DNA of 64,000 bases from Bacilli bacterium (GTDB lineage Bacteria; Bacillota_I; Bacilli_A; RF39; UBA660): the NCBI GenBank assembly GCA_017397685.1, contig JAFQID010000026.1, forward strand, positions 153 through 64,152, given 5' to 3'. Made by a program: the position numbers and the translations under genes. The notes below the pieces were generated by a model. It made no database searches. It was not told where the DNA came from and saw nothing but the letters and a program-made list of their open reading frames with translations. Shown here one piece after another: positions 25,294-46,473 of this stretch. The number at the start of each line of letters is the position of its first letter. The stretch's first letter is position 1.

Positions 25294-25303
25294 GAGGTGA
25301 GTG

Positions 25304-27952: not shown

Positions 27953-28759
27953 ATGGCAGTAAGTAATTTTATACAGACTATATGGTCTAAAAAGATTCAA
28001 GATGACCTAGAGTTAAAAACAAAGTTAGTAGCAAACTGTTTAAGAAGCTACGAGGGAGATTGTAAATATGCACAATCTGTAAAAATCTTAGGAGTAGGAG
28101 AGCCAACAATCGGTAAATATACTGGTGCTGAAATCACTATCGAAGAGATGAGTGATAAAGGTCAAACATTAACTATCGACCAAGCAAACTTTTTTGCATT
28201 CTATGTTGATGATGTTAATGTGGCTCAAAGCGTTCCAGGATTAAAAGAAGAATATCAAAGAAAGGCTGTACACGGTTTAGCAGTTGCTAGAGATACATAT
28301 GTTGCTAATCTAATCAAAGGTGCTACTAATTCAACAACTGCAACAGCATTAACTCAAGAAGCAGTTAAAGAGGCTATTGACGGTGCTATAGTTGCTCTAA
28401 GAGAGAGAAACTTTGATGAAGAGGGCGTAATTGAAATTACACCAGCAGTTTATAATGTGTTTAAAAATGAATTAATCACATTATCAACTAACAACCCAGA
28501 ATACATTAAGAAAGGTATCGTAGGTATGTATGACGGCATGGAAGTATGTATGTCTAATAACATGGCTAAAGATGATACTCATGTATATTGTGATGTTAGA
28601 GGTAAAAAGGCTATTGCTTTCGCTGGTCAAATCAATGAAGTTGAAGCATTAAGAGCAGAGAAAGTATTTAAAGATATCATCAGAGGTCTTGACACATTCG
28701 GTGCTAAAGTTATTGATGAAAACAGAATACAAACAGTTAAAGTACCTTTAACAGCTTAA
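27953..28759 (+). CDS. major capsid protein
   Basis: 268 aa. N-terminal FIQTIWSKKIQDDLELKTKLVANCLRSYEGD...VKILGVGEPTIGKY fits a common capsid-family pattern. A strong terminator follows and the codon usage is GC-richer. Confidence 0.7.
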   Translation: MAVSNFIQTIWSKKIQDDLELKTKLVANCLRSYEGDCKYAQSVKILGVGEPTIGKYTGAEITIEEMSDKGQTLTIDQANFFAFYVDDVNVAQSVPGLKEEYQRKAVHGLAVARDTYVANLIKGATNSTTATALTQEAVKEAIDGAIVALRERNFDEEGVIEITPAVYNVFKNELITLSTNNPEYIKKGIVGMYDGMEVCMSNNMAKDDTHVYCDVRGKKAIAFAGQINEVEALRAEKVFKDIIRGLDTFGAKVIDENRIQTVKVPLTA

Positions 28760-29167: not shown

Positions 29168-29545
29168 ATGTTTAAAATCGACAAAACAAGTAAACAAATA
29201 AGTCTTACTAGAGGTGATGTTGCTCAAATTGAAGTATCAGCATTAAACGAGGACGGAACAGACTATACTTTTAATGAGGGCGATATTATAAGATTTAAAG
29301 TAATTAAAAGAAAAGAATGTAATAGTGTTGAATTACAAAAAGATGTAGAGGTAAACGAGGCTGGAACAATAGTTAATATATCTTTAACAAGTGAAGATAC
29401 TAAGATAGGTGGGCTTATAAATAAACCGGTTAAATATTGGTATGAAGTAGAAGTTAATCCTGAAACAAATTGTCAAACTATAATTGGCTATGATGAGGAC
29501 GGGGAAAAAATATTTATGTTGTATCCGGAGGGCTCTGAAGAATGA
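29168..29545 (+). CDS. hypothetical beta-rich virion-module protein
   Basis: Start set at MFKIDKT (GGAGG RBS). 125 aa. Confidence 0.5.
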   Translation: MFKIDKTSKQISLTRGDVAQIEVSALNEDGTDYTFNEGDIIRFKVIKRKECNSVELQKDVEVNEAGTIVNISLTSEDTKIGGLINKPVKYWYEVEVNPETNCQTIIGYDEDGEKIFMLYPEGSEE

Positions 29546-30669
29546 TAGAAGCAAAAGAAAGTTTAATAGGTAATATAAACGCTTCTGATTCATTACAAGG
29601 TAGTTTAAATAAGGCAATAGAATATGTATCTCCAACGACTCAAGAAAAGAGTATTACACCTACAAAAGAGACTCAAGAGGTTGTTCCTGACGAGGGTATA
29701 TTTGCTTTATCAAAAGTAATAGTTGAGGCTGTTTCAAACGAAATAGATGAAAACATAAAACCAGAAAACATAAAAGAAGGTGTGTCGATTTTAGGAGTAG
29801 AAGGAAGTTTTGTTGGTGGTAGTGGTAAATATGCTCCTAGAAGTTTATCATTTTATTACTATTCTGGCACGGAGCTTGATTATGAACTTACCAATGTTGA
29901 TACAAGCAATTTAACTACAACGCAATATATGTTTGCAAATTGTAGTAATTTACTAAGTGTAGATTTGTCTAAACTAGACACTAGCAACGTGACGAATATG
30001 GGTTTGATGTTTACACAATGTAGAGCATTAACCAAAATTGATTTAAGACCTTTAAATACTAGCAAAGTTAAAAGTATGGGTAATATGTTTAGTTATTGTT
30101 CTGGTTTAACGGAAGTAAACTTTGATGGTATAGACACTAGTAGTTTGACAGGTGCTTGTATGAACCAAATGTTTGGCTATTGTTCGTCTTTAAAAGAAAT
30201 TGATATGAGCAGTTTTAATACCAGTGAAGCAGATTCGTTAAGCAGTTTGTTTTCTGGTTGTACTTCGTTAGAACATATCGATGTAAGTAGTTTTAATACC
30301 AGTAATGTGACTAATATGAGTTATGTATTTAATAATTGTAGTTCGTTAACTACATTAGACATAAGTAATTTTGATGCTAGTAAAGTTGTTAATCTTAATA
30401 GTATGTTTGCTAACTGCACATCACTTGCTAATTTAACTTTTATGAATAATTTGGGTAAAGGTTATACAAGAACGTCTTCAAATTACAGTCAATACACTCT
30501 TAATTTGTCGGCTTGTCCTTTAACACACGATAGTTTAATGGATGTGATAAATAAATTATACACTTTAGGAAATTATGAACAGTCACTTGTACTTGGTGCT
30601 GATAATTTATCAAAACTAACTGCTGATGAAATTGCAATAGCAACAAATAAAAACTGGAATGTTTCTTGA
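29542..30669 (+). CDS. structural-module protein with BspA/DUF285-type leucine-rich repeats
   Basis: 375 aa. About 8 tandem ~25-aa units of the type (D/N)TSxVTNMxxMFxxCxxLxxxDxSxF, e.g. LDTSNVTNMGLMFTQCRALTKIDLRPLNTSKVKSMGNMFSYCSGLTEVNF. Confidence 0.7.
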   Translation: MIEAKESLIGNINASDSLQGSLNKAIEYVSPTTQEKSITPTKETQEVVPDEGIFALSKVIVEAVSNEIDENIKPENIKEGVSILGVEGSFVGGSGKYAPRSLSFYYYSGTELDYELTNVDTSNLTTTQYMFANCSNLLSVDLSKLDTSNVTNMGLMFTQCRALTKIDLRPLNTSKVKSMGNMFSYCSGLTEVNFDGIDTSSLTGACMNQMFGYCSSLKEIDMSSFNTSEADSLSSLFSGCTSLEHIDVSSFNTSNVTNMSYVFNNCSSLTTLDISNFDASKVVNLNSMFANCTSLANLTFMNNLGKGYTRTSSNYSQYTLNLSACPLTHDSLMDVINKLYTLGNYEQSLVLGADNLSKLTADEIAIATNKNWNVS

Positions 30670-30911: not shown

Positions 30912-31454
30912 ATGAAATTGTTAGAAATGAAAAAGAAAGTTTTAGCACTCATTGAGGAAATAGATGATACACAAACAAGTTTAACAAACGATCCAGATAT
31001 AGAGGCTAAACTTCCTTATGTCATTAATCAAATTATCTTTGAACTCGCAAGATTTAAAAAGATACCTGAATATGTAGAGCAAGAAGTAAAAGAGGGCACT
31101 ACTTTTGATTTAAAAGATTTAGATAACTTTTACCAATTGCAAATCGTAAGAGGTATAAAATATGATTTTTTGACAGAAACACTGATAAGGTTTTTGGAAA
31201 ATGGCACTGCCGAAATATCATATTATAAATACCCGCAACGAATAGATATTAATACTCCTGACACATATGAATTTGATTTGTCTGAAGATGCATTAGAGAT
31301 TGCTGTATATGGAATAGCAGCAGATTTATTAAAAAGTGATATATCGAATAATAATGGTATAATTTACGCTAATAGATATAAGGAATTGATGCAAACATTA
31401 GATCCGAGATATCAACTAGGGGTAATAGAAATAACAGATGGAATAGAATTATAG
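30912..31454 (+). CDS. putative head-tail adaptor
   Basis: 180 aa. Assigned only by position (P22 gp4-like slot) and helical character. Confidence 0.35.
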   Translation: MKLLEMKKKVLALIEEIDDTQTSLTNDPDIEAKLPYVINQIIFELARFKKIPEYVEQEVKEGTTFDLKDLDNFYQLQIVRGIKYDFLTETLIRFLENGTAEISYYKYPQRIDINTPDTYEFDLSEDALEIAVYGIAADLLKSDISNNNGIIYANRYKELMQTLDPRYQLGVIEITDGIEL

Positions 31455-31465
31455 GAGGCTGATAA

Positions 31466-33190
31466 ATGGCAAACACGATTAGTGGAACATTAATTACAAG
31501 AAATTATACAGACTTTAGAGGAGTTGACTTCACAGATGAAGAAGTATCACTTATGAGAAGCCCAGATAGTTTAAATATGTGGAAAGATTATAAAAAATTA
31601 GGTAAAAGCATAGAAACACGTCCAAAGATGAGATTATTCAAGGAATATGATAATACCATTTTTGGACTATTTTTTTATAAAGTAGGAACTAATGAAATGT
31701 TAATCGTTCATTCAGGTACAAAACTTTATAAGGAACAAGAAGGAATAAAAGAAGAACTATATACAGGTATGAAACCTGCCAAAAGTTATTCATTTGTATA
31801 TAATAATATTTTATATATAAAAGACGGAATAAATTATTTGAAATATGATGGAGAAACATTGTCAAGTGCAGAAGAAGATGCATTTGTTCCTACAACTACT
31901 ATAAGTAGATCACCTAATGGTGGTGGTACAACCTATCAAGATATAAATATGTTAAGCCCATATAGGAGAAATAGTTTTGTAGGTGATGGTGAGTCAAGAG
32001 ACTATCACTTGGATACAACTGGGCTAGATGTGGGAGAAAATACTGTAACTGTGACAATAAATGATGTGCTAATGGTTGAAGGTACTGACTTTTCTGTCAA
32101 TAGAGAGACAGGTGTAGTTACATTTAATTCAATACCACCAAAACCTTTAACAGATGGGCAAGATAATGTTTTTATAACATTCAAAAAGACAGTTGATGGT
32201 TATGCGGATAGGATAAAAAAATGCACTCTACTTACAGTATTTGATAATAGGGTGTTTTTTAGTGGGAATCAAGATTATCCTAATGTTGTATGGCATAGTA
32301 GTTTAAATGATCCTTCTTATTGTAGCGACTTAGATTATTACAATGAAGGATTAGACCTTTCACCGGTTAAAAGTATGGTGGCGGGTAATAATGCACTATG
32401 GGTATTTAAAGAACCCAGCCAAGCAAATACGACAGTGTTTTATCATAATCCAACAATTGATTCTACATACGGTAAAGTATATCCAAGTTCACATTCAAGC
32501 ATTTCAACTGGTTGTATAGCTACTGGAATCAATTTCAATGATGATATAGTGTTCTTTAGTGATAGAGGAATGGAAGCAATAAATGGAGATGTTACGACAG
32601 AACAGGTGCTTGCACATAGAAGTTCTTTAGTAGATAGTAAACTAGTTACTGAAGAAAAATATAAAGATATGATTCTTGAAGAATATGCTGGATATTTATT
32701 AGTAATTATAGAAAATAAAGTTTATTTAGCGGATAGTAGAGCGATGTTCACAAATGGCGACCATAATGAATATGAATGGTTTTACTGGGAATTAGAAGAA
32801 AAAATTACAATAACTAAAGTTAAAGATGGTGTTTTATATTTAGGTACAGAAAAAGGGATTTTTGTTTTAGATGATGTTTCAAATGAAAGAGAAGTAGAAT
32901 CCTATTGGATAACTCCACTAGATGAGTTTAAATATCCTCATTATCAAAAAACTACTAATAAAAGAGGGTCTGTAACTGATATAAAAGGAAATAATATAAC
33001 TATATCAACAAAATTAAATAATAGTGAATTTACCGAAATAGTAACTCATAATCAAATCAATGGTTATGTAGTAAATCGAATAAAAAAGAAAAAATGGAAA
33101 TCAATACAGTTAAAGTTTAGTTCGAATTTACCATTTGAACTACGTTCAACAACACTAGAAGCATATGTTGGTGGATATATAAAAAGATGA
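31466..33190 (+). CDS. putative tail hub / nozzle protein
   Basis: 574 aa, beta-rich. Assigned by position (P22 gp10-like slot). No motif certain. Confidence 0.35.
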   Translation: MANTISGTLITRNYTDFRGVDFTDEEVSLMRSPDSLNMWKDYKKLGKSIETRPKMRLFKEYDNTIFGLFFYKVGTNEMLIVHSGTKLYKEQEGIKEELYTGMKPAKSYSFVYNNILYIKDGINYLKYDGETLSSAEEDAFVPTTTISRSPNGGGTTYQDINMLSPYRRNSFVGDGESRDYHLDTTGLDVGENTVTVTINDVLMVEGTDFSVNRETGVVTFNSIPPKPLTDGQDNVFITFKKTVDGYADRIKKCTLLTVFDNRVFFSGNQDYPNVVWHSSLNDPSYCSDLDYYNEGLDLSPVKSMVAGNNALWVFKEPSQANTTVFYHNPTIDSTYGKVYPSSHSSISTGCIATGINFNDDIVFFSDRGMEAINGDVTTEQVLAHRSSLVDSKLVTEEKYKDMILEEYAGYLLVIIENKVYLADSRAMFTNGDHNEYEWFYWELEEKITITKVKDGVLYLGTEKGIFVLDDVSNEREVESYWITPLDEFKYPHYQKTTNKRGSVTDIKGNNITISTKLNNSEFTEIVTHNQINGYVVNRIKKKKWKSIQLKFSSNLPFELRSTTLEAYVGGYIKR

Positions 33191-33202: not shown

Positions 33203-34270
33203 ATGGCGACAACAAATTCATATGTAAATTACGATGATGAAAGATTTACCGATGTTAAAGCGAAAGAACAACAAAAAATAACTGAATCTGATACTCATTA
33301 CAATAATATGATAAATCAAAGTGATAATTATTATCAAAGCCAAATAGATGCTACAAAAGATTATGCAGAGACTCAGAAACAAATACAACAGGAACAAACG
33401 GATTTTGCAATAGAACAAATAGAACAACAAAAAGAACAAGCAGAGAAAGATTATACGAAAGAACAAAAAGGAGCATATGTTGATTGGCAAAAACAATCTA
33501 ATCAATATGGTGCAACCGCAGAACAATTTGCTTCAAATGGACTTTTAAATACAGGTTATAGTGAGAGTTCTCAAGTAAGTATGTATAATACTTATCAAAA
33601 TAGAGTATCAACTGCGAGAGAAAGTTTTAACAACGCCGTTTTAAATTATAACAATAGTATAAAGGAAGCTAGACTTGCTAATAATAGTGCACTTGCTGAA
33701 ATTGCATATAATGCACTTCAAGCACAATTAGAACTCTCTTTGCAAGGATTCCAATATAAAAATACTTTACTTCAAGCACAATTAGATGCAAAAAGACAAA
33801 TTGAGTCTGATTATTATAACAGATGGGAAAATGTTCTTAATCAAATCAATTTAGAAAAACAAACGGCTATGGAAGAAGAGCAAAGGGCAAAAGAACAAGC
33901 AAGATGGGAAGCGGAGATGGCATATCAAAAAGAAAGAGATAAAATAGCGGATCAACAATGGCAAAAAGAATATAATTTAGCTAAAAAATCTTCTAGTTCG
34001 AGCAGGTCTTATAGTAGTGGCGGTGGTTCTTCAAGTAGTGCATCAATAAAAAAACCATCAACTAAAGAAAAAATATACAAAGCTAACAGCACGGCTAAAT
34101 TGAGTACTACTGCTGCAGGAAAGTTTGTAAATGATAATATAACTTCAATAGTTATAAAAAATGGAGGAATTACTGAGTCTCAACTAGTTTCAGCTCTAAA
34201 CAAAGGTAAAGAACAAGGACTTTTGACAAATGATGATATTAATAAGGTTCTACTTACATTTGGTTTGTAA
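33203..34270 (+). CDS. Gln-rich coiled-coil virion protein with a Ser/Gly linker
   Basis: 355 aa. Long Q/E heptads, then SSSSSRSYSSGGGSSSSAS, then a small C-terminal domain. Confidence 0.5.
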   Translation: MATTNSYVNYDDERFTDVKAKEQQKITESDTHYNNMINQSDNYYQSQIDATKDYAETQKQIQQEQTDFAIEQIEQQKEQAEKDYTKEQKGAYVDWQKQSNQYGATAEQFASNGLLNTGYSESSQVSMYNTYQNRVSTARESFNNAVLNYNNSIKEARLANNSALAEIAYNALQAQLELSLQGFQYKNTLLQAQLDAKRQIESDYYNRWENVLNQINLEKQTAMEEEQRAKEQARWEAEMAYQKERDKIADQQWQKEYNLAKKSSSSSRSYSSGGGSSSSASIKKPSTKEKIYKANSTAKLSTTAAGKFVNDNITSIVIKNGGITESQLVSALNKGKEQGLLTNDDINKVLLTFGL

Positions 34271-34286
34271 TGATTAGGAGGATAAA

Positions 34287-37200
34287 ATGAGTTCAATACG
34301 GAAAAAACTAGGGTTACCTGAATTAGAAGAAAATGATTCTTCACGCATTAGGAAGAACTTCAACTTGCAACCTTTAAAAGAAAAAAGTAATGAAAAAATT
34401 ACAACTTTAGAAAGAATATTTAAATCGAAAAATACTATTGATGAACCTGAAATAAATAGCAATTTAGAGACTTTAGAAAGTTTAAAAAAACGAAAAGAAC
34501 AAATATTACAAGAATTGCCGAAACATAAAAAAGAAAACAAAGATTTATGGTGGAGTGAAGGCAGAAGTTTTTTAGGAAACATAGGTAATGCTTTGTACAA
34601 CTTAATAGACCCAAAATATGAAGAAAAAAAATATATAGAAGATGAACACTATTATGCTTTAGAAAAAGAATTGAACGAAATAAATAACCAAATTGATAAT
34701 TATAATGTTAATAACAAAAATTATTCGTCAGGTTTCATTGGAGGAGTAGAAAAAGCAAATGATACTTTCGTAGGAAATATAAGGACTGCTACAAAAGGTA
34801 TAGAGAGTACAACAAAAAAGATTTTGGGTCAAACTCCTAGTAAAGAAATGGTTGATTTAAGCTTAGAAGAAAAATTAGCACAAAAAGCTAAAAATGAGTC
34901 AACTGGAGTTGGAAGTGTTGCTTTAGATGTGTGGGGCGGAATTGCAAGAATGGTTCCGCAAATGGCTATAGGCAATCCAACAGGTTCAACAATAATGGGA
35001 TTTGCAAATTATGGCGGTGGTGCTTATAATGAGGCAATTAACGATGGTTATACTGATGAACAAGCTACAAAATATGGATTAGCTATAGGAACTACCGAAA
35101 TGGCTATGACTAAGGTTTTAGGTAGTTTTAGTAATATATATGGAAAGAATAAATTAGGACAAGCTTCTCAAAAAATAATTGATAAGTTCATACCTAAGTT
35201 AATTTCTAATAAACAAATACGAAATATACTATCTCAAATGATTAGCGAAGGTGGAGAAGAGTTTGTTCAAGAATATGTTGAGAACATTGTTAAAGATACA
35301 TTACTTGACGAAAAAGGTTTATTAAAATCTTCTTGGAAAAATATTACTAACGAAGAAAATCTATCAAATGCATTATACTCAGGATTTATTGGTAGTTTAA
35401 CAGGTGGAATAATGTCTGCACCTACTGAAGTAAGTAAATATAATTATGAAAAAAATACAGGAAGAAATGCAGAAACTGGATTATCTATAAACGAACAAAA
35501 AGTATTTGATACAGAAGTGAAAAATAGAATTGATGAACTTCAAAAAAATGGTGAAAAACTATCTAAAAAACAAATAACCGAGATAGAAAATCAAGTTGAA
35601 AGTGATTTGAAAAGAGGAAATATCACACTCGATACAATAGAAAGCATATTGGGCGGAGAAAAATATAATGATTATAAAAAAATAAATGATAGAAAAGACT
35701 TTTTAGAATCAAAAATAAAAGAACTAGAGAATAAGAAAATCACAGAAACAACAGTGAAAGATAACGAAACATTACAAAATTATAGAAAAGAATTATCTGA
35801 ATTAGATATAGATAATGTTAAAAACAAATTAAGTACAGAAGTAGATAACTTAACTCAAGAAGATTATTATTTAAGAGAAAGTTATAATAACAAAACTAGA
35901 AGAAGTCAAAAATATGCTGCAGATGTAAGTAAATATGACGTTAAACAACAAGCCACTATTCAAAAAGCAATAGATAGTGGTATTTTAAATGATACAAATC
36001 AAACCCATGATTTTGTAGATTTAGTTGCAAAATTATCAGCTGATAAGGGAGTAGAGTTTGATTTTACAAATAATGAAAAACTTAAAAATAGTGAGTTTTC
36101 TATTAAAGATAAAGTTGTTAATGGATATGTTAAAGGCAATACTATAGGTTTAAATATAGACTCTAACAAAGCATTAAATAAAGTTGTAGGACATGAAATA
36201 ACACATGTACTAGAAGGTACTGATTTATATTCAGAATTACAACAAGCGGTAAAAGAATACGCAACTACAAAAGGAGAATATGATGCTCGCTTAAAAGATT
36301 TAACAGAGTTATACAAAAATATAAAAGATGCTAACATAGAAAATGAATTAACTGCCGATTTAGTTGGAGATTATATATTTACAGATACTGACTTTATAAA
36401 AAACTTATCTGCAACAAAGCCTAATTTATTTCAAAAAATATATAATGAAATAAAATATTTATATAAATTAGCAACAGCAGGAAGTAAAGAAGCAAGACAA
36501 CTAGAAAAAGTTAAAAAGACTTTTGAAGATGCTTATAAAAATAATAACCCGCAAAGTAACGAAAATACTAAATATCATATAAGTGAAACACTTTCTAATG
36601 AAATAGATCAAGTTCTTGATGGAAGTTATAATAGCAGTAATCAAGTTAAAGCAAGAAATTATACACCTAAAATATTAGTAGATAATGGTGTTACTGATTT
36701 GCCAATGCTAATGACAGCAAAGCATATAAGAACAACTGTACTTAGTGAGAATGAAGCAAGGGAAAAAGGATATATAATTAACAAAAAAGACCATTATCAC
36801 GGATTAGGTAAAGAAACATTAATGAAAGTAATAGATAGTTTAGACGCGCCTTTGGAAATATATAAACAAACTGATAAAAATTATTTAGTTATAACAGAAA
36901 TTGCCGATAAAAAAGGGAAAAAAATAATTGTACCTATAGAAGTAAATGGGAAAGGCAATTATAACAATATTTATATAGATGAGAATCAAATAAAATCTGT
37001 TTATGGTCATAAAGATTTAGGAGGCTATTTAAATTATAATAATTTTGAAAAAATTTATTCAAAAAAAAGAACTGTTTTAAATGAAGGGGTAAAATCCCAC
37101 GACATTAACAGTTCAATTTCTAATAATATACCACAAAACACTAAAAATGTCAAGGATACATCATCTACTAAATATTCTATTAAGAATAAAGAAAATAATA

Positions 37201-40200
37201 CACAAAATCTTTCTTTATCTAATAAAAATGATATAGCACCTATAAATCCTAATCTAACTTATGGAAAAGATATAAAACTACAAGTAGAAGAAGCAATAGC
37301 ACCTATAAAAGAGACAATAGATAATTTATCAAAACAAGTAGAAACTATATCACAAGATATAGCACCTGTAAAAAAAGCAGAGATTATGCAGAACACTGCA
37401 GAAGATACTGCAGAAAATGTAATAGAAAAAGAAAATACTCAAGAAAGTGCCAAACTTTTAGATTCAAGACCTTTAAAACAAAGAAAAAGTGCTTCTGAAC
37501 AAGCAAAAAAACTTTATCAAATGTTAGTGGATAAAGGTAAATATGTATCTGACCTTGCTAAAAAAACCAATAATCCTGAACTTTATGCAAAATACGATCA
37601 AATGGGTACTGCAAGAGGAACTGCTGAATATTCAATAGCAGTAGGTCAAGTTGATAATAATGGTAAAATAATAGGAAAGAGTCTTATTGATATATGGCAG
37701 CCTATTACTGAAAGCGGTAAAGAGTTTGATTTTAGTATGTATTTATTACACAAACATAATATAGATAGATATGCGCAGGGTAAACCTGTATTTGGCGAAG
37801 ATATAACAAGTGAAATATCACAAGAAGAAGTTAGTAAATATGAACAAAAAAATCCTGGGTTTATAAAGTGGTCTAAAGATATAAATACATATAACAAAAA
37901 TCTATTACAAAATATGGTTGATGCAGGTCTAACAAGTGAAGAAAGTCAGAAGTATTACAATGATACTTATTCTAATTATGTAAGAATATATAGAGATATG
38001 ACAGGAAACAATCCTATTACTATGTATAATGGAAAACTTAAAGTTAATAATCCTATAAAAACTGCTAAAGGTGGAAATCAAGATATACAACCTCTTAAAG
38101 ATAGTATGGCACAGCACACTTTAGATGTAACAAATGCTATAAGGAGAAATCAATTCGGTTTAGAGTTATACAATACTTTAGGAGAAGGTGAAAATGTAAC
38201 AGAGTATGGAGAAGATATAATAGCAAAAAACAAAGATGGTTCTTATACATTTACTGTGTTTGATAAAGGTCAACCTGTTAAATTAACTATAGATGAAGGA
38301 TTATATGAAAGTATTAAACCAACTGCGAAAGCAAATTGGGAAGATACAATAATAACAAAAGGAACAAATAAATTACTTCAATTTCAAAGAGGTTTGATTA
38401 CTGATAAAAATCCATTATTTTTAGTGAGAAACTTCTTTAAAGATTTAGGAGATGCTCCCCTTAATTCTAAATATGGTAGTAAGTTTTTTAAAAACTTTGT
38501 TAAAGCGTATAATGAAATTGCGACAAATGGAGAATATGCACAACTTTATAAAGCTATGGGTGGTTATCAACAATCATATTTTGATAACGATAAAGGTTTA
38601 AAAATGCCTTCACAAAAAGTTAGTGCTAAGTTTGTTCAAAAAATACAAAGTCTTAATCACGCTGTAGAAATGGCACCTCGACTTGCCGAGTTTATATCAT
38701 CTATTGAATCAGGGGATAGTGTACAAACAGCAATGTATAATGCTGCTGAAATTACAACAAACTTTAAAAGAGGTGGAGAAACTACAAAAAAAGTTAATAA
38801 ATATTTTTCTAATTTTCTAAATGCATCTGTTCAAGGATTTGATAAACAATTTAGAAACTTTACAGGACAAAATGGAGCAAAAGGATATATTAATTTATTA
38901 CTTAAAGCTACAGCATTTGGAATAGCTCCTTCATTATTGAATCATTTATTATTAGAAGATGATGAAGAATATGAGGAACTTCCAGATTATATAAAAGACA
39001 ACTATTATTTATTTAAAACAAATGATGAAGGAGACTTTATTAGAATACCTAAAGGAAGGGTTGTAAGTGTGTTTGGAAATGCTGCAAGAAGAACAATTGA
39101 ATATGCAAATGGAGATAAAAAAGCCTTTAAAGGTTATTTATCTAATGTAGCAACAAATGTAGCACCTAATAATCCGCTAGAAAGTAACGTTTTATCTACT
39201 TTTACTCAAGTGGCAACGAATAAGTCGTGGAATAAAAGTGATATAGTACCTCAAAGATTACAGAACTTACCTGCGGCAGAACAATTTGATGAAAAAACAG
39301 ATGAAATATCTAAGTGGATAGGTAGAACATTTAATATAAGCCCTAAAAAAGTTAATTATATATTAGATCAATATAGCGGAGTATTTGGTGATGTTTTCTT
39401 GCCTATGATGACACCACAAGCAGAACAAAATCCATTCACTAGCGCTTTTACTGTTAATAGCACTACAACAAATAAATATAGTAGTGAGTTTTATGATGTC
39501 AAAGATGAATTAACTGAAAAATCTAATTCAGTAAATGCAACTAACGAGGATATACTAAAAACAAAATATATGAACTCTGTACAAACTGAAATGAATGAAT
39601 TATACAAGGAAAAACGTGAAATACAAATGTCTAATATGACAGATGAAGAAAAACGTAAAGAAGTTAAAAAAATACAAAGTTATATCAACCAAATAGCAGA
39701 AGAAGCGTTAAATAATTATGAAAGTGTTAAAGTATATTCTAACTATAGCAAAATAGCTGATAAAGAGTTTTATATTGGGTCTGATGGAGAGTGGACAAAA
39801 GTCAAAACTGAGGATATGTACGACCTAGAAGATTTGAATATGAACGATGAAGATAAAAACAATTATTTTAAAGCTAAAAATAATATTTCTAACATTAAAA
39901 AAGATATAAGTTCGGAAGATAGAAAAAGTTTTATAATAAATGAAGTTATAAATAGCAATTTAAATGATGAACAAAAAGCCTACCTATATGATAAATACTA
40001 TGCTAGTACAGATAAATTAAATATAGTTGTTAAAAGTGGTATCGGTATGGACGAATATTTAGTTTTAGAAGCTCAGAACTTTCAAGCAGATAAATATCCA
40101 AATGGTAAAACCGTTACAGGTAGCAAAAAAAATAAAGTTTTTAATTACATCAATTCTACTAATTTGGGCTTTGAACAGAAAGTTATTTTAGCTAAAATGT

Positions 40201-40340
40201 ATTATCCATCTTATGATGAATATAACTACGATATTATAAATTATCTAAATGATAATGAAAACATTACTTATGATGATATGAAGAATATTTTAGAAACCTT
40301 AGGCTTCAAAGTTAAAGGAAACAACATAACGTGGGATTAA
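34287..40340 (+). CDS. 2017-aa virion protein: candidate ejected/polyvalent protein with an HExxH zincin motif and a MuF_C/PBECR-like module
   Basis: AGGAGG RBS. Gly-rich hydrophobic segments. VVGHEITHVLEG (HEITH at 36192-36206). HYHGLGKETLMKVIDSLDAPLEIYK...NYLVITEIADKKGKKIIVPIEVN. Confidence 0.6.
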   Translation: MSSIRKKLGLPELEENDSSRIRKNFNLQPLKEKSNEKITTLERIFKSKNTIDEPEINSNLETLESLKKRKEQILQELPKHKKENKDLWWSEGRSFLGNIGNALYNLIDPKYEEKKYIEDEHYYALEKELNEINNQIDNYNVNNKNYSSGFIGGVEKANDTFVGNIRTATKGIESTTKKILGQTPSKEMVDLSLEEKLAQKAKNESTGVGSVALDVWGGIARMVPQMAIGNPTGSTIMGFANYGGGAYNEAINDGYTDEQATKYGLAIGTTEMAMTKVLGSFSNIYGKNKLGQASQKIIDKFIPKLISNKQIRNILSQMISEGGEEFVQEYVENIVKDTLLDEKGLLKSSWKNITNEENLSNALYSGFIGSLTGGIMSAPTEVSKYNYEKNTGRNAETGLSINEQKVFDTEVKNRIDELQKNGEKLSKKQITEIENQVESDLKRGNITLDTIESILGGEKYNDYKKINDRKDFLESKIKELENKKITETTVKDNETLQNYRKELSELDIDNVKNKLSTEVDNLTQEDYYLRESYNNKTRRSQKYAADVSKYDVKQQATIQKAIDSGILNDTNQTHDFVDLVAKLSADKGVEFDFTNNEKLKNSEFSIKDKVVNGYVKGNTIGLNIDSNKALNKVVGHEITHVLEGTDLYSELQQAVKEYATTKGEYDARLKDLTELYKNIKDANIENELTADLVGDYIFTDTDFIKNLSATKPNLFQKIYNEIKYLYKLATAGSKEARQLEKVKKTFEDAYKNNNPQSNENTKYHISETLSNEIDQVLDGSYNSSNQVKARNYTPKILVDNGVTDLPMLMTAKHIRTTVLSENEAREKGYIINKKDHYHGLGKETLMKVIDSLDAPLEIYKQTDKNYLVITEIADKKGKKIIVPIEVNGKGNYNNIYIDENQIKSVYGHKDLGGYLNYNNFEKIYSKKRTVLNEGVKSHDINSSISNNIPQNTKNVKDTSSTKYSIKNKENNTQNLSLSNKNDIAPINPNLTYGKDIKLQVEEAIAPIKETIDNLSKQVETISQDIAPVKKAEIMQNTAEDTAENVIEKENTQESAKLLDSRPLKQRKSASEQAKKLYQMLVDKGKYVSDLAKKTNNPELYAKYDQMGTARGTAEYSIAVGQVDNNGKIIGKSLIDIWQPITESGKEFDFSMYLLHKHNIDRYAQGKPVFGEDITSEISQEEVSKYEQKNPGFIKWSKDINTYNKNLLQNMVDAGLTSEESQKYYNDTYSNYVRIYRDMTGNNPITMYNGKLKVNNPIKTAKGGNQDIQPLKDSMAQHTLDVTNAIRRNQFGLELYNTLGEGENVTEYGEDIIAKNKDGSYTFTVFDKGQPVKLTIDEGLYESIKPTAKANWEDTIITKGTNKLLQFQRGLITDKNPLFLVRNFFKDLGDAPLNSKYGSKFFKNFVKAYNEIATNGEYAQLYKAMGGYQQSYFDNDKGLKMPSQKVSAKFVQKIQSLNHAVEMAPRLAEFISSIESGDSVQTAMYNAAEITTNFKRGGETTKKVNKYFSNFLNASVQGFDKQFRNFTGQNGAKGYINLLLKATAFGIAPSLLNHLLLEDDEEYEELPDYIKDNYYLFKTNDEGDFIRIPKGRVVSVFGNAARRTIEYANGDKKAFKGYLSNVATNVAPNNPLESNVLSTFTQVATNKSWNKSDIVPQRLQNLPAAEQFDEKTDEISKWIGRTFNISPKKVNYILDQYSGVFGDVFLPMMTPQAEQNPFTSAFTVNSTTTNKYSSEFYDVKDELTEKSNSVNATNEDILKTKYMNSVQTEMNELYKEKREIQMSNMTDEEKRKEVKKIQSYINQIAEEALNNYESVKVYSNYSKIADKEFYIGSDGEWTKVKTEDMYDLEDLNMNDEDKNNYFKAKNNISNIKKDISSEDRKSFIINEVINSNLNDEQKAYLYDKYYASTDKLNIVVKSGIGMDEYLVLEAQNFQADKYPNGKTVTGSKKNKVFNYINSTNLGFEQKVILAKMYYPSYDEYNYDIINYLNDNENITYDDMKNILETLGFKVKGNNITWD

Positions 40341-40351
40341 AGGAGGTGTGA

Positions 40352-42334
40352 ATGAAACAAGATTTAAATGGAGTAAGAACTGCACAAGATATTGAAAGAA
40401 AATATGATTTAAGCTCTATTGCAGGAATAAAAAAAGCTGTAGAACTTAATGAAAACACGATTACAAAAGTAGAACAAGAGACCTCTAATTTATTAGAATC
40501 ACTAATAATAAACCTTGAAGGGATAGTGCTTAATGGTGCTATCTCTTTATGGTTTTATTCAGGTGTACCTTCAATGAAAAGTGAACCTGAGATAAATTGG
40601 ACTACAGAAGAACAAAGAACAGAACATTTAAACGATTTATATTACGATAGGGAAACAGGAAACGTTTATAAATATGTGTTTGATAGTGAATATAAATGGG
40701 AAAAACAATTAGATGGCAAATTAATTGAAAGTATGGCTTTAACAAATGCTTCAATAGATACTTCAGACCACGAAAGACAAGTGTTTTTTGAACAAACTCC
40801 AACACCACCATATTCCAATGGTGATTGGTATATTAACGAAAATGGTGACCTGTATATATGTCAAATCTCAAAAGATGAAACGGAAAGTTATAACAAAAAT
40901 GATTTTATAATTTCTTCACAATATACCTATAATACGAATGCTAATCACAAAGGAAATGTATTAACTGTTTTAAGTGGTAGAGTAACTATGGTAGAGGTGG
41001 GTGAAGAAGAACTACGATCTAGCATAAAGGAAACAGTGAATGATTTAAGAACAGCAGAAACTCTAATAAAGCAAAATGTTGAAAATATAAGCTTGTTAGC
41101 CGAAAAAGTAGTAGAAGTTTCTAATACAGTTTCAGGAATGAGTTCTATTCAATTAACTAGTTGTAATGAAGGTCTTTTATATTATTTATCTATAAAAGGT
41201 GAAATTGGACTGTTAGATCCTCCTGAAATTATTCTACAATTAACTAATAATAACGGAACTGAAGAATATGTACTGCCTATTAATTATTTAAATGTCTTAA
41301 ATGATATTTCAGATGAGTTTAGAATAGAAAACGGTAGAACTTCAATTATAAGGAACATTGAAATTGATGATGAAGGCAATAAAACTGTTGCTTCTGAGCC
41401 TATAATAGAGATCTACGATAATATAGATATATATCTAGCAAATGGAGTTAATACCTTGACTTTGGTGACTCCAAACAATTTAAATATTTCTGCTACTTAT
41501 TTACTAGATACCATATATACGGATAATTTCGCTACACATGTTCAAGTATCTAGTGAAATACAAAACTCGGCACAAGAAATTATGCTGAATGTTCAACAAA
41601 TTGAAACATCTTTTGAAGGGCAAATAACGAATACAAATCAATTGATAATGAATGTTCAAAATGGAATGACGAACACTTTTACAACTAGCGGTGGTAATAA
41701 TTTGTTAAGAAATACAGATTTAGCTGAAGAAACAAATGAAGGATATGTTAGTTGGAGTGGTAGTTTAAATAAACAAGATAACGTTGAAGCGGTAAATGGC
41801 ATTTCAATATTGCTTCAAAATGGAAGTGCTACACAAATAGATGAAGTTCCAAATGGTCAATATGTTTTAGGTTTTAATTATAACAAACTATTAGAATTAA
41901 GCACTGGATCTATTTTAATAAACGGAACTGAATATGTGTTAGAAGATTACGGAACTTTTGAACAAATATTTGAAGTTACTACAAACTCAATTAATATTGA
42001 GTTTAAAAGTGACGCCAATAATTCATATGAGATTTATGATTTAAGAGCAAACGTAGGAAGTGTGTTGTTACCTTATTCACAAAATCCTAACGAAATTAGA
42101 AGTAACACTGTAACTATTGGTGAGGGAATTAGAATAAAAAGTGATATACAAAATACTGAAACAACTATTGATGCAGATGGGCAAAGAGTTATAAACGCCT
42201 CAACAAAAGAAATTGTTCAACAATCAACTGATGAGGGTGGCTGGTTTAAAAAAATTGTAGTAGAAGGGGATAGTGAAATCACAGGACTTTCAATTAAAAG
42301 AGTAGGAAGGCAGGTGCATATTAATGGATTGTAA
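40352..42334 (+). CDS. tail fibre / receptor-binding protein (putative)
   Basis: 660 aa. AAGGAGG RBS. Coiled-coil N-terminus followed by a beta-rich C-terminus. Position upstream of the lysis genes. Confidence 0.5.
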   Translation: MKQDLNGVRTAQDIERKYDLSSIAGIKKAVELNENTITKVEQETSNLLESLIINLEGIVLNGAISLWFYSGVPSMKSEPEINWTTEEQRTEHLNDLYYDRETGNVYKYVFDSEYKWEKQLDGKLIESMALTNASIDTSDHERQVFFEQTPTPPYSNGDWYINENGDLYICQISKDETESYNKNDFIISSQYTYNTNANHKGNVLTVLSGRVTMVEVGEEELRSSIKETVNDLRTAETLIKQNVENISLLAEKVVEVSNTVSGMSSIQLTSCNEGLLYYLSIKGEIGLLDPPEIILQLTNNNGTEEYVLPINYLNVLNDISDEFRIENGRTSIIRNIEIDDEGNKTVASEPIIEIYDNIDIYLANGVNTLTLVTPNNLNISATYLLDTIYTDNFATHVQVSSEIQNSAQEIMLNVQQIETSFEGQITNTNQLIMNVQNGMTNTFTTSGGNNLLRNTDLAEETNEGYVSWSGSLNKQDNVEAVNGISILLQNGSATQIDEVPNGQYVLGFNYNKLLELSTGSILINGTEYVLEDYGTFEQIFEVTTNSINIEFKSDANNSYEIYDLRANVGSVLLPYSQNPNEIRSNTVTIGEGIRIKSDIQNTETTIDADGQRVINASTKEIVQQSTDEGGWFKKIVVEGDSEITGLSIKRVGRQVHINGL

Positions 42335-42335
42335 A

Positions 42336-44582
42336 ATGAAATTAAATATACAATTATTTGCTGCAAGTAAAACTCAAACAAAGACTATACAAGATAGTTA
42401 CGGAAACGACTATAAAGTTACAATACAAATAAATGAAACTTTACCAAGCGATTATTTAACTTCAAACATTTCAACTTTGAGCGGTTCAGTTAAAGTATCC
42501 AATACTGGTAGTGGCGGAGCATATTCTTCTAGTAAAGATATGTCCGCAACTATTACTTTCAAAAATGATAATTCAAGTGGAACGCAAATATCAAAAAAAA
42601 GCGGAAGTACGGCTTTTAACTTTGACGGTTCAGCTACAAAAACAGCAACGCCTTTAACGTTTAGTGGAATAAGTGTGTCTCATAATGATGATGGTTCGAA
42701 AACAGTTTACTACACTATGACTTTAAAAGTTAGCACGACTAGTTTGGCTCAAACAGTTTCAATGACTGGAACTATTGTTTTGACTGATATTCCACGTGGA
42801 AGCAAAATAAATAATACTACTTTCGATATAGAAAAAAGCAATACTTTACAGATTACAAAGTACGTTAGCCTTTATTATGATAAACTGCAAATGTTTACTC
42901 TTGATGATAATAATTCAGAAATACTCGTGGATATGTTTTTGGATGTTGAAAATGGACAAAGCATAACTGTTAGCAACTCTAAAAAAAGTGTTTATTATAA
43001 TGCGAATAAAAACAGACAAAATACAAAAATAATTTTAAAATTAACAACTTATGCTGATAACACAATGGCAACTGTTATTGGAACTGACACAAAAGAATAT
43101 GATAACAAAATTACAACACCACCAACTTTTACCGATTTTGATTTTTCTGATATAAACACAAAAACAACTTCTTTAACTGGTGACACATCAATTATTGTCA
43201 AAGGCTATTCAAATGTAAAAGTGGATATTCCAACAAGCAAGAAAGCGGTTGCAAATAAAGAAGCAACTATAAAAAATTATAATGTCAATGGTACATTGAA
43301 AGCATATGCTGACCCATTTAGTTATACGATTAACAATTTTGACGCAACGGAGTTAATTGTTTATGCGATTGATAGCAGAAACTTGCCTACAAGAGTATCG
43401 AAACCAGTTAATTTAAAAAACTATACAAAGGTAGTTAAATTAAATAATGAAGCCGAACGTGAAGGTGGAGTAGGAAGTCAAGTTACTTTTGATTTAAGTG
43501 GAACTTATTGGAATGATACATTTGGTGCTGTTCAAAATGATTTGACCGCAACTTATAGATTTAAACAAACTGACGGGACATGGCAAACAGGTGAAAGTGA
43601 AATAATCTTAACTAAAAATGGCAAAAACTATTCGTTTAGTGGTGTTTTAAAAGGTGATGCTGAGGATTTAGGATTCGATATAGCAAACTCTTACAACGTA
43701 GAAATTATAGTGCAAGATAAACTATCGAGTGTAACTTTTGCTTATTTAATAGGTGCTTCACAACCAGCGATTGCTATTTTAAAAAACAATGTGGCTTTAG
43801 GTGGAGTATATGATGAAAGTATAAATAAAAAAAGTCAAATATACGATGCTTTCATAAAAAATGCAGATTTAGTCGTGAGTAATATTAAAAGCAAAAATCT
43901 ATTAATGTTATCTAACCCTCTCGCGATTACATTGCGCAAAGAAATAGTTGGAGATTTTGAAGCGGGTACTTACACATTGAGCGTTAGCGACATTCAAAGT
44001 TCTGGCACTAGTGCTGATTATTTGTTTTTATTCGTAGGCTATTCTAGTGAAGAATATTATGTTTACTTGCGACAAGATAGACTGTCTTACACATTTGACT
44101 TACCTTGGAACGCTGAAAAATTAGTAATTTATTCACAACATGGTTATTCTGATTCTGTAGATATTACTACAACTTTTGAAGATATTATGTTGGAAAAAGG
44201 AAATGAAGCAACTTCTTATAGTTCTTTCAAAGACTTTGTAATTGAATCAGGTGAAAACGAAAATGGCACTTGGGAAAAGTGGGCTAGTGGCAAGATGATG
44301 TGTTATGGAAATAAAACAATAGAAGAAGGAGTTGCGTGTACTACAAATTGGGGTGAGCTGTATCAAGGAACTGTAAGTAATTTAATAACTTATCCTCAAG
44401 TTTTTAAAGAAGTAAAACATGTCGAAATAACAGCAATTCCTACAACGTCCGCAGCGTTTTGGATAATGATGGCTTCAAGACAATATTTGACTACTGGATA
44501 TTCAGCAATATATTTCATGCGACCAACATCAGCGACTGTTTATCCATTTATTAGTTGGTTAGCAATAGGCAAATGGAAATAG
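42336..44582 (+). CDS. tail fibre/spike-like protein with an N-terminal L27/Prp-type cleavage motif
   Basis: Begins MKLNIQLFA-ASK (an alternative in-frame ATG lies at 42324). 748 aa, Thr/Ser-rich and beta-rich. Confidence 0.55.
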   Translation: MKLNIQLFAASKTQTKTIQDSYGNDYKVTIQINETLPSDYLTSNISTLSGSVKVSNTGSGGAYSSSKDMSATITFKNDNSSGTQISKKSGSTAFNFDGSATKTATPLTFSGISVSHNDDGSKTVYYTMTLKVSTTSLAQTVSMTGTIVLTDIPRGSKINNTTFDIEKSNTLQITKYVSLYYDKLQMFTLDDNNSEILVDMFLDVENGQSITVSNSKKSVYYNANKNRQNTKIILKLTTYADNTMATVIGTDTKEYDNKITTPPTFTDFDFSDINTKTTSLTGDTSIIVKGYSNVKVDIPTSKKAVANKEATIKNYNVNGTLKAYADPFSYTINNFDATELIVYAIDSRNLPTRVSKPVNLKNYTKVVKLNNEAEREGGVGSQVTFDLSGTYWNDTFGAVQNDLTATYRFKQTDGTWQTGESEIILTKNGKNYSFSGVLKGDAEDLGFDIANSYNVEIIVQDKLSSVTFAYLIGASQPAIAILKNNVALGGVYDESINKKSQIYDAFIKNADLVVSNIKSKNLLMLSNPLAITLRKEIVGDFEAGTYTLSVSDIQSSGTSADYLFLFVGYSSEEYYVYLRQDRLSYTFDLPWNAEKLVIYSQHGYSDSVDITTTFEDIMLEKGNEATSYSSFKDFVIESGENENGTWEKWASGKMMCYGNKTIEEGVACTTNWGELYQGTVSNLITYPQVFKEVKHVEITAIPTTSAAFWIMMASRQYLTTGYSAIYFMRPTSATVYPFISWLAIGKWK

Positions 44583-44886: not shown

Positions 44887-45207
44887 ATGGATATAGAATT
44901 AGTAAAACAAATTATAATAGTTGCTATTGCTTCAAGTATCATAAGTACGGCAATAGTTCAAAAAGTTAAAGAACAATTAAAGAGCAAAAAATGGCTCTTT
45001 TTTGTTGGTTTGGTGGTTAGTATAGGAATAGGTATAGCTTTTGCTTCAAGTTTCTCAGAACTATCGCTATTGAGTTCAGTATGGGTAGGAATAGTGTCTT
45101 GGATAGGAGCTGATGCAATTTATAAAGCGTTTGAAGATAAGATATTTAAATCTTTTTCTAATATAGACAATGCTAAAACTATTGTAATAGAAAGAGATGA
45201 TGAATAA
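44887..45207 (+). CDS. holin (putative, 3 TM)
   Basis: 106 aa. Three hydrophobic helices and a charged C-terminus. Immediately upstream of and abutting the endolysin. Confidence 0.65.
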   Translation: MDIELVKQIIIVAIASSIISTAIVQKVKEQLKSKKWLFFVGLVVSIGIGIAFASSFSELSLLSSVWVGIVSWIGADAIYKAFEDKIFKSFSNIDNAKTIVIERDDE

Positions 45208-46055
45208 TGGCAACATATAAAGCATTAACCGAAGAAAATTGTAAGGATTTTAAAAACTTTAAATATAGTGAGTTTAAGTGTAAGTGCAAAGGAAAATATT
45301 GTAAAGGATATCCTGTACCATTTAGTTATCAATTAGCATCGCATTTGCAAAAAATACGAGATAATTTCAAAAAGCCAGTAATAATAACGAGCCCTTTAAG
45401 ATGTAAACAACATAATAAAAACTCTGGAGGAACTTCAAATTCACCACACATGAAAGGATGGGCAGTAGATTTTTATATAAATGGAGTTTCATATGATAAA
45501 TTATATTCATATGTTAAAAAACTTCCATATTACAGTTATGCTTATCGTGTAAAGAAAAATCAAAATGTGATACATTACTCGATTACTCCACCAAGTGAAA
45601 TACAGGTTGTTTCTACAGTTAAAAGAGATGAGTTTAAAAATCAGTTAAAAGTATTAGCTGATGAACTTAGAGTAAGAACTGGTGCTAGTACGAATGCATC
45701 TATTGTAGGGGTTGCGAAGAAAAATTGTATTTATAATTATTTTGAAACAAAAAAAGATAGTAAATATACATGGTATAGAATAGCCGATAAGCAATGGGTA
45801 GCAAATAATGGAAAGTATCTCACAGTGTATTCAAAAACGGAAGGAGAAGATGAAAAAGTGATAGCGGAACTTCAAAAACAAGTTCAAGAATTAACTGATA
45901 AAAATGTTTTGTTAGAAAAAACAAATCAAGAACTTCAAACTCAAATAAAAGAAAAAGAAACAAATGAATATAAAAGTATTTATAAATGTGCAGAAGATGG
46001 AGACTACAATATTAAAATTAAAATGTATAAAGATGAAGAATTATATATAAAATAA
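45207..46055 (+). CDS. endolysin: M15A-type zinc peptidase + SH3b-like domain + C-terminal coiled coil
   Basis: SPLRCKQHNKNSGGTSNSPHMKGWAVDF is the Peptidase_M15A pattern. LRVRTGASTNASIVGVAKKN...YTWYRIADKQWV is SH3b-like. ELQKQVQELTDKNVLLEKTNQELQTQIKEKE is the coiled coil. Confidence 0.8.
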   Translation: MATYKALTEENCKDFKNFKYSEFKCKCKGKYCKGYPVPFSYQLASHLQKIRDNFKKPVIITSPLRCKQHNKNSGGTSNSPHMKGWAVDFYINGVSYDKLYSYVKKLPYYSYAYRVKKNQNVIHYSITPPSEIQVVSTVKRDEFKNQLKVLADELRVRTGASTNASIVGVAKKNCIYNYFETKKDSKYTWYRIADKQWVANNGKYLTVYSKTEGEDEKVIAELQKQVQELTDKNVLLEKTNQELQTQIKEKETNEYKSIYKCAEDGDYNIKIKMYKDEELYIK

Positions 46056-46444: not shown

Positions 46445-46473
46445 TTTTACCTCTTATTTACCTCTTATTTTTC
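46445..46473 (+). repeat. 29-bp direct repeat, right copy; candidate integrase arm-type site
   Basis: Identical to 6819-6847. Lies 98 bp from the right att core. Confidence 0.55.

Follow-up and report, generated by a model that had tools for sequence, protein, structure and literature searches.

We analysed a stretch of 64,000 nucleotides from a Bacilli bacterium (NCBI GenBank assembly GCA_017397685.1, contig JAFQID010000026.1, positions 153 to 64,152 of the forward strand), referred to here at its full length as the window. Our subject is a single gene, at 34287-40340 on the forward strand, that lies among the virion genes of a prophage and encodes a protein of 2017 amino acids (aa). The protein joins a predicted metallopeptidase (MPTase) of the zincin type, a MuF_C domain that occupies a slot of rapidly changing content, and a large module built around the domain family LPD38. 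We regard it as a phage-type polyvalent protein that is probably packaged in the virion and ejected into the host. All coordinates are 1-based positions in the window, and aa numbers refer to the 2017-aa protein.

The open reading frame (ORF) begins with an ATG, runs uninterrupted to a stop codon that is included in the range given, and exceeds every other ORF of the window in length. A ribosome-binding site (RBS; AGGAGG, 34276-34281) stands five nucleotides before the ATG, and the next gene begins 12 nucleotides past the stop. An identical protein has been deposited without annotation (hypothetical protein IJB83_02720, from a 'Bacilli bacterium' metagenome-assembled genome). The peptides that a preliminary description of this DNA had quoted from the protein are all found where it placed them. 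The gene and its protein have the following features.

34287-40340, + strand: whole gene, polyvalent protein of 2017 aa (ORF and RBS)
34464-35921, + strand: N-module, aa 60-545 (homologue conservation)
34899-35021, + strand: glycine-rich, moderately hydrophobic segment, aa 205-245 (highly conserved; Kyte-Doolittle maximum 1.02)
35919-36551, + strand: predicted gluzincin metallopeptidase module, aa ~545-755 (predicted topology, motif conservation)
36192-36206, + strand: HEITH, the HExxH motif, aa 636-640, with H636, E637 and H640 (conservation; model helix 85-98)
36342-36359, + strand: NELTAD, aa 686-691, with E687 and D691 (conservation; model helix 140-155)
36548-37215, + strand: hypervariable cassette (DNA comparison with two sister phages)
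36567-36584, + strand: linker motif 1, TKYHIS, aa 761-766, bordering the cassette on its N-terminal side (motif scan)
36720-36725, 36798-36800 and 36996-36998, + strand: candidate catalytic residues K812-H813, H838 and S904, respectively (residue conservation)
36780-37067, + strand: MuF_C, Pfam match aa 832-927 (PF18819); the folded cassette covers aa ~767-931
37080-37214, + strand: disordered linker, aa 932-976 (low model confidence, model residues 388-431)
37167-37184, + strand: linker motif 2, TKYSIK, aa 961-966 (motif scan)
37479-39776, + strand: module B, aa ~1065-1830 (structure model, BFVD and BLAST)
38883-38954, + strand: most hydrophobic helix, aa 1533-1556 (Kyte-Doolittle 1.33); YINLLLKATAFGIAPSLLNHLLL is aa 1533-1555 (38883-38951)
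38961-39419, + strand: LPD38, aa 1559-1711 (PF18857)
39804-40337, + strand: C-terminal helical domain, aa ~1840-2017 (homologue coverage, structure model)

Searches of the whole protein against Pfam returned only two families above the cut-off, MuF_C and LPD38. The preliminary description had named MuF_C, and the profile searches for MuF_C and the LPD families show that match to be real and add LPD38 to it. The sole PHROG match of the protein is the unannotated family phrog_14770, over module B. When eight sub-segments were compared with Pfam at E<=10, nothing credible was returned for the N-module, the zincin module, aa 961-1140 or the C-terminal domain. Homology searches identified several hundred relatives, mostly of 2000-3500 aa and often encoded on contigs of ~39-41 kb. 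BLAST coverage by these relatives divides the front of the protein into a variable leader (aa 1-59), the N-module (aa 60-545), the module that carries HExxH (aa 545-755) and a variable region (aa ~755-976). The rear consists of a short conserved linker, module B (aa ~1065-1830) and the C-terminal domain (aa ~1840-2017), which is kept even in relatives whose module B is missed by BLAST.

The N-module is retained in ~100 of the 120 top homologues. It consists of a core (aa ~165-400) followed by a coiled-coil-like spacer (aa ~400-545), includes the invariant glycine-rich stretch MGFANYGGGAYNEA, and belongs to no Pfam or PHROG family. A HMMER scan of 1.84 billion representatives with this module identified 1105 clusters at E<=1e-3, and in nearly all of them it is N-terminal in a protein of 2000-3300 aa. 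The protein is a fixed chassis, consisting of the N-module, the zincin, module B and the C-terminal domain, combined with a swappable payload, and hundreds of related giant proteins have the same chassis in common.

One syntenic contig of ~41.8 kb (L005) encodes a minimal version of 1630 aa (P0041; L005 10001-14893) that consists of the N-module core, one PBECR3 domain and module B. This version has neither the zincin module nor the TKYS linker motif described below, and the same contig encodes a solo PBECR3 protein of 152 aa near its end. A second homology search (P0121-P0240) returned many relatives of the zincin/MuF_C region that are only 240-750 aa long, most of them on short contigs, and these are probably fragments. 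A few (P0122, P0127) are on contigs of 48-164 kb and may represent split genes or solo proteins with a zincin and MuF_C. We considered whether the gene is often split and rejected this reading, as the short homologues are mostly on short contigs; the zincin-less version of 1630 aa is genuine, however.

The exchange of the payload is evident from two sister phages found in other samples (L002 and L003). Both are 98-99% identical to the window at the DNA level from 30883 to 36539/36547 and again from 37216. Between these points they have ~1000 bp that are unrelated to the 668 bp of the window (36548-37215). The window protein carries one cassette, MuF_C. Its relative P0002 carries a divergent MuF_C-like cassette and a second cassette of ~130 aa, and P0003 carries the same second cassette after an unrelated one of ~170 aa. 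Among more distant relatives the cassette region contains ART-PolyVal, Pol-beta nucleotidyltransferase, PBECR3, PBECR5, ParB, SprT-like, LPD3 and LPD23 domains.

The HExxH motif occurs once in the protein, where 0.01 occurrences would be expected by chance given its 16 histidines. Of the ~110 relatives whose alignment spans the motif, essentially all retain it, and the single exception reads HEITD. E687 and D691, which form an ExxxD motif within NELTAD 47 residues after HExxH, are invariant. The combination of HExxH with ExxxD on a downstream helix is the signature of the gluzincins, including thermolysin (NExxSD) and neprilysin/M13 (ExxxD), in which the glutamate is the third zinc ligand. The M4, M13, M48 (Ste24/HtpX) and M34 gluzincins have the two helices and the core elements in the same order as is predicted for the present protein. 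However, the spacing of 47 residues between the motifs and the surrounding helical elaborations are specific to this family.

We modelled aa 545-975, comprising the zincin and MuF_C together, with AlphaFold2 from an alignment of 54 sequences, and obtained a mean predicted local distance difference test (pLDDT) score of 88.5. The zincin part, mostly at pLDDT >90, consists of a helix, three strands, the HExxH helix (model residues 85-98) and the glutamate helix (140-155). This is the order of secondary structure elements given for the zincin core by Iyer et al. (PMC5512222). In a Foldseek comparison with the PDB, anthrax lethal factor appears at ranks 1, 3, 13, 15 and 25, with non-significant scores (E 0.08-1.0, probability 0.06-0.35); lethal factor is also the relative that Iyer et al. 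(PMC5512222) found by HHpred for the polyvalent MPTases. Sub-threshold Pfam matches to Peptidase_M48 (14/54 sequences) and M13 (5/54) fall on the HExxH helix in relatives, with E between 6e-4 and 0.15. Of the zincin proposed in the preliminary description, the conserved HExxH/ExxxD pair and the predicted topology stand, and a significant profile or fold match is lacking. Judging from motif conservation and the model, aa ~545-755 are probably a genuine, active gluzincin of a clade that lies outside the current profiles.

The segment of ~140 aa that had been likened to MuF_C and the PBECR families (aa 790-931) contains a match to PF18819 at aa 832-927 (44.9-51.2 bits against a cut-off of 27.6, E 1e-11 to 1e-13), and the likeness holds. 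Iyer et al. 2017 (PMC5512222) class MuF-C among the PBECR families, which are predicted RNases with the phage BECR fold. The model of the cassette has helices followed by a sheet of four to five strands, with pLDDT >90, an arrangement compatible with a BECR fold. Three positions are largely kept in an alignment of 35 diverse homologues: H813 (23 of the 29 sequences without a gap), H838 (29/35) and a serine or threonine at 904 (30/35). K812-H813 are in the N-terminal helix of the cassette (model residues 267-274), H838 is in the sequence HYHGLG, and S904 is in the terminal strands (IKSVYG). According to Iyer et al. (PMC5512222), PBECRs that are active differ from the MuF-C of phage Mu, which is inactive, in having a histidine together with a serine or threonine. 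A lysine before the histidine has also been reported for colicin-like BECR domains. The MuF_C domain described here retains the Lys-His and Ser/Thr set expected of an active BECR RNase, and we predict that it is an RNase.

LPD38 was identified at aa 1559-1711 (PF18857, E 6e-33, 115-117 bits against a cut-off of 27); Iyer et al. (PMC5512222) describe this domain as restricted to polyvalent proteins of the phage type. An AlphaFold2 model of aa 1040-2017 (~980 aa, module B and the C-terminal domain) is compact and mostly helical (pLDDT 86.6, predicted template modelling score (pTM) 0.75). Foldseek found no relative of module B in the PDB (best E 0.89). Comparison with BFVD gave 72 matches at E<=1e-3, with template modelling (TM) scores of ~0.6 over ~900 columns at 15-20% identity. 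Among them are the polyvalent protein of phage PTXU04, a protein of Ralstonia phage Alix, and proteins with lytic transglycosylase, RelA/SpoT or methylase domains in their other parts. Additionally, tblastn and BLASTP link module B to giant proteins of the Bacillus podophages Page (gp20), Pony and Palmer, of Vibrio podophages and of Thalassomonas phage BA3. The Pfam model of LPD38 (189 aa) is the core of a module of ~770 aa, since both the fold matches and the sequence matches span far more than the model.

Two hydrophobic segments of the protein, both of them conserved, had been described as membrane-insertion-like. Over 19-residue windows their Kyte-Doolittle maxima are 1.33 (aa 1538-1556) and 1.02 (aa 211-229), and the usual transmembrane threshold is 1.6, so neither segment is of transmembrane grade. 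The first of these values belongs to helix 491-517 of the compact and confident module B model. We rejected a transmembrane reading of the glycine-rich segments as their hydropathy is too low, and refolding after ejection remains conceivable.

The borders of the cassettes are marked by a short motif with the consensus (D/G/N)-(T/V/I)-K-Y-S-(L/I)-S-(E/D). The two copies in the window are TKYHIS (aa 761-766) and TKYSIK (aa 961-966). The first follows a short stretch of low confidence in the model (model residues 212-217, aa 756-761). The second is inside a stretch of 45 residues with pLDDT <50 that includes the conserved sequence NNIPQNxKNVKDxSS-TKYSIK-NKENNTQ. In P0008 there are three copies, located exactly between the zincin, MuF_C, Pol-beta and PBECR5 domains.

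The 500 proteins that we collected contain 238 copies of the motif, where 33 would be expected from composition. Among 99 representatives of clusters at <=50% identity, 81 copies are found downstream of HExxH compared with 6.25 after shuffling (13-fold), and only two are found upstream of it in 62,014 residues. Cassette regions contain 1.18 motifs per 1000 aa in zincin-bearing proteins and 0.08 in zincin-less proteins with module B (0.04 expected from composition), a co-occurrence that is confounded by phylogeny. Among the zincin-less proteins is the 1630-aa version, which is complete and occupies the same locus in the syntenic phage. In the prophage, we checked further structural and lysis ORFs and did not find the motif in any of them.

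Iyer et al. (PMC5512222) proposed that the MPTase of a polyvalent protein releases other domains by autoproteolysis, and described no linker or cleavage site. We tentatively suggest that the (T/V/I)-K-Y-S-(L/I)-S-(E/D) linkers may be the cognate cleavage sites of the built-in gluzincin, and that the protein may be a virion-packaged polyprotein with plug-in effectors; we consider this less likely than not. If it is true, each effector brings its own release site, so that the exchange of a cassette automatically yields a correctly processed new weapon, and the motif would be the first processing code to be defined for phage polyvalent proteins.

The gene is located in a prophage of ~39.6 kb (6819-46473) that is edged by a perfect direct repeat of 29 bp at 6819-6847 and 46445-46473 (TTTTACCTCTTATTTACCTCTTATTTTTC), probably the attL/attR cores. 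A tyrosine integrase gene (6839-7954, - strand) adjoins tRNA-His (6694-6769), and a near-identical phage is present as contig L002, of 39,279 bp. The other genes assigned are as follows.

22806-23252, + strand: TerS
23242-24714, + strand: TerL
25301-27043, + strand: portal, with 58% identity to its counterpart in a syntenic relative, in which Pfam P22_portal is matched
27127-27921, + strand: probable scaffold, assigned from gene position only, with no Pfam or PHROG family matched
27953-28759, + strand: major capsid protein
29542-30669, + strand: BspA-type leucine-rich repeat (LRR) / DUF285 protein, inside the head-tail module
30912-31454, + strand: adaptor-like protein, weak SU10-adaptor match
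31466-33190 and 33203-34270, + strand: two virion structural proteins
40352-42334 and 42324-44582, + strand: two tail proteins
44887-45207, + strand: holin
45207-46055, + strand: endolysin

Searches with Pfam and PHROGs found no tube, sheath, tape-measure or chaperone gene around the 2017-aa gene, and PADLOC gave no match. Judged by its gene content, the element is a temperate phage of the P22-portal, short-tailed type of a low-GC Bacilli host, because of the att repeats and integrase, the homology to P22-type portals, and the absence of any tube, sheath, tape-measure or chaperone gene. The 2017-aa gene occupies the slot of P22-like ejection proteins. The preliminary description had placed it, as the largest ORF of the window, where podoviruses encode their ejection proteins, and had taken the phage to be temperate; gene order and portal homology agree with that placement.

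Several other positions in the prophage differ from the sister phages. The 3' part of the LRR gene (29542-30669) and the next small ORF, to ~30883, have no DNA homology to the otherwise 95-99% identical sister phages. This region is a second hypervariable spot, possibly encoding a decoration or adhesion protein. The 98% DNA identity to the sister phages is also broken at 43897-44561, in the 3' end of the gene for a tail protein of 752 aa, and at 45213-45618, in the 5' half of the endolysin gene. One sister-phage endolysin contains Peptidase_M23; the other contains Peptidase_M15_3 and is of the same length as the endolysin of the window. From these identity breaks it follows that receptor-binding and lysis modules are swapped too. 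An ORF of 462 aa just outside the right att repeat (46638-48029, - strand) has no PHROG match.

The protein contains no cysteine, and ~16 would be expected (the neighbouring virion genes have 0.81% Cys). Cysteine is likewise absent from 106 of the 223 homologues longer than 1900 aa, in which the median Cys fraction is 0.03%. The lack of cysteine is consistent with unfolded passage through a narrow channel.

Overall, we consider it likely that this is a polyvalent protein of the phage type that is packaged, ejected, and equipped with an RNase-like payload that its zincin releases. The fixed chassis holds MuF_C, a PBECR domain, in the cassette slot at aa ~755-976. The protein would be packaged in the capsid during assembly, and would then leave via the portal and tail channel, either before the DNA or together with it. 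We infer packaging and ejection because of the gene position, the virion proteomics of homologues that bear LPD38, and the total avoidance of cysteine. Module B, the N-module or both may supply the packaging and ejection function, which would account for the essential role of the PTXU04 homologue. The built-in zincin may cut at the disordered linkers that bracket the cassettes and so free the RNase-like module. The target of the freed module could then be host or defence RNA in the early phase of infection, following the proposals of Iyer et al. (PMC5512222).

Several observations weigh against this explanation. The model of the zincin and MuF_C has no match in the PDB at E<=1e-3 by Foldseek, and BECR structures are absent from the top 50 matches of this two-domain model. 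Pfam zincin families, including the polyvalent MPTase model, do not match the window protein at E<=10, and sequence searches of the PDB with the whole protein and with a profile of aa 545-975 gave only chance-level matches (ferritin, annexin). By Kyte-Doolittle no segment of the protein is of membrane-channel grade. The literature that we searched contains no experimental RNase activity for any PBECR family. Packaging, ejection and cleavage are steps that we infer for the 2017-aa protein itself, and there are proteins with MPTase domains, N4 vRNAP and ArdC, whose transfer takes place without processing (Iyer et al., PMC5512222). Some domain borders have no motif; the cassette region of P0017, ~1700 aa long, contains only two copies, and in P0005 there is none. 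Zincin-less relatives may be another clade, in which case the motif and the zincin would occur together through phylogeny. It is plausible that the repeated linkers serve the recombination of cassettes, either instead of cleavage or in addition to it.

One alternative has the same architecture and the same delivery, but in it the zincin is an effector that cuts host proteins or helps to breach the thick Gram-positive wall, and the TKYS sequences are conserved flexible linkers whose repeated coding sequence promotes the gain, loss and exchange of cassettes by recombination. Iyer et al. (PMC5512222) list host-directed cleavage among the possible roles of the MPTases, and peptidoglycan degradation has been suggested for gp47 of phage phi24B (bioRxiv 10.64898/2026.04.10.717836). 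The swap boundaries of the cassette are ~30 nucleotides or less from the motifs, and several domain borders are without one. The window also lacks the ~130-aa cassette that P0002 and P0003 have between '...NKENNTQ' and 'KYSIS-NQNDIAP', and has in its place a degenerate 'NLSLS-NKNDIAP' junction, as expected from recombination between linker repeats. However, the zincin belongs to the invariant chassis, not to the variable payload, which suits housekeeping processing better than an arms-race effector. HExxH with ExxxD indicates a gluzincin endopeptidase, unlike the usual phage wall peptidases M15 and M23, and the phage has a separate endolysin. Moreover, a pure recombination linker need not keep its aa sequence across clusters at <=50% identity, nor need it track the zincin. 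We regard this alternative as rather unlikely, and give it the most weight among the readings that compete with release by the zincin.

The protein could also be a structural component of the tail or ejectosome in which the enzymatic domains are degenerate and MuF_C binds RNA or DNA, or aids head assembly as in Mu gpF. The MuF-C of Mu itself is held to be catalytically inactive (Iyer et al., PMC5512222), no enzymes are recognisable among the relatives of module B and the N-module, and the PTXU04 homologue is essential, which would be expected of a structural protein. Nevertheless, the catalytic sets are retained both in the zincin (H, E, H, E and D, all invariant) and in MuF_C (K-H and S/T). 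Furthermore, the turnover of the slot between near-identical phages and the ART, nucleotidyltransferase and other PBECR domains found there in relatives are the signature of conflict effectors. A purely structural role is in our view improbable.

That the gene encodes the conventional tape-measure protein of a long-tailed phage is suggested by its size, the largest in the structural module, by its glycine-rich hydrophobic and coiled-coil-like stretches, and by the automatic labelling of some metagenomic BFVD relatives as Siphoviridae or Myoviridae, but this has next to no probability and is effectively refuted: profile searches detected no tape-measure, tube, sheath or chaperone match in or around the gene, the portal is of the P22 type and accompanied by a weak SU10-adaptor match, module B has homologues in the isolated podoviruses Page, PTXU04, BA3 and the Bcep22-like JC1, and its predicted fold is compact and globular (pTM 0.75) rather than an extended helix.

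Polyvalent proteins, which are encoded commonly by phages, form a large reservoir of predicted counter-defence enzymes. The present locus is compact and tractable, with one payload cassette, an intact-looking protease, two candidate cleavage motifs, and sister phages that differ essentially only in the cassette. The self-processing hypothesis of Iyer et al. (PMC5512222) becomes directly testable with it. The fold of the module centred on LPD38 is predicted with confidence and has no relative among solved structures, and the module is common to this protein and to the essential protein of the coliphage PTXU04.

The protein described here closely resembles the polyvalent class of Iyer et al. (PMC5512222). 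It is likewise a giant polypeptide encoded among late virion genes that combines a zincin-like MPTase, MuF-C and LPD38 with mosaic, fast-changing payloads, and it has at least two unrelated conflict or effector domains in the late or virion neighbourhood of a prophage. However, the domains described for the class cover neither the N-module (aa 60-545) nor, beyond LPD38, most of module B, and the zincin matches no Pfam zincin model, that of the polyvalent MPTases included.

A second close counterpart is gp47 of phi24B, a Stx-converting temperate podovirus (bioRxiv 10.64898/2026.04.10.717836). This protein of 2811 aa, reported to contain LPD38 and MuF-C, is abundant in virions and invisible in the cryo-electron microscopy map, and the authors assign it as a capsid-packaged ejection protein (bioRxiv 10.64898/2026.04.10.717836). 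The phage differs in its Gram-negative host, and gp47 has additional LPD5 and LPD1 domains. A tblastn search with the 2017-aa protein did not find it at E<=1e-5, and the two are related at the level of domain families only. The authors refer to a 'Muf-C metallopeptidase domain', whereas Pfam and Iyer et al. treat MuF-C as a predicted RNase of the BECR type; in the present protein the peptidase and MuF_C are separate.

PTXU04 gp25 (Escherichia phage, 2198 aa) shares the module with the present protein both in sequence and in predicted fold (BFVD rank 11, E 3e-23, TM 0.62), and PTXU04_00025 is needed for efficient infection. Another protein with LPD38, gp69 of the Bcep22-like phage JC1 (compare Bcep22 gp75, 'DarB-like'), is virion-associated, with 51 peptides and the second-highest mass spectrometry score. 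The N-terminal and payload regions differ from ours: those of the JC1 protein contain lytic transglycosylase, methylase, helicase and LPD3 domains, and those of PTXU04 contain nothing recognisable. Neither has MuF_C, and both phages infect Gram-negative hosts. Module B is thus shared with PTXU04, and with JC1 and phi24B at the level of the LPD38 domain.

Like the protein proposed here, N4 vRNAP and P1 DarB and DdrB are very large capsid-packaged proteins that enter the host together with the DNA. An MPTase domain is present in two of them, DdrB, which undergoes proteolytic processing, and N4 vRNAP, which is packaged unprocessed (Iyer et al., PMC5512222). We detected no sequence or fold relation between these proteins and ours, and their payloads are polymerase or antirestriction functions, not PBECR domains. 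The ejection proteins gp7, gp16 and gp20 of P22 and gp14, gp15 and gp16 of T7 are encoded in the same slot, after the head-completion genes and before the tail fibre or spike, and have the same presumed exit through the portal. However, these phages use three proteins instead of a single giant one, sequence and fold searches of the PDB found no homology, and the protein described here has no segments of transmembrane grade.

The preliminary description considered the combination of a metallopeptidase and an RNase-like module in a virion protein of a temperate phage from this lineage to be new. At the level of the class this claim of novelty is not sustained, as fusions of MPTase and PBECR domains in proteins of virion context are a stated theme of Iyer et al. 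(PMC5512222), and the temperate phage phi24B already packages a protein reported to have LPD38 and MuF-C. The class has been described, and the present protein is a new example of it, not a new kind of system. To what is known of the class it adds a probable gluzincin clade outside Pfam as part of the invariant chassis, LPD38 as the core of a larger fold, and a candidate motif for processing or recombination.

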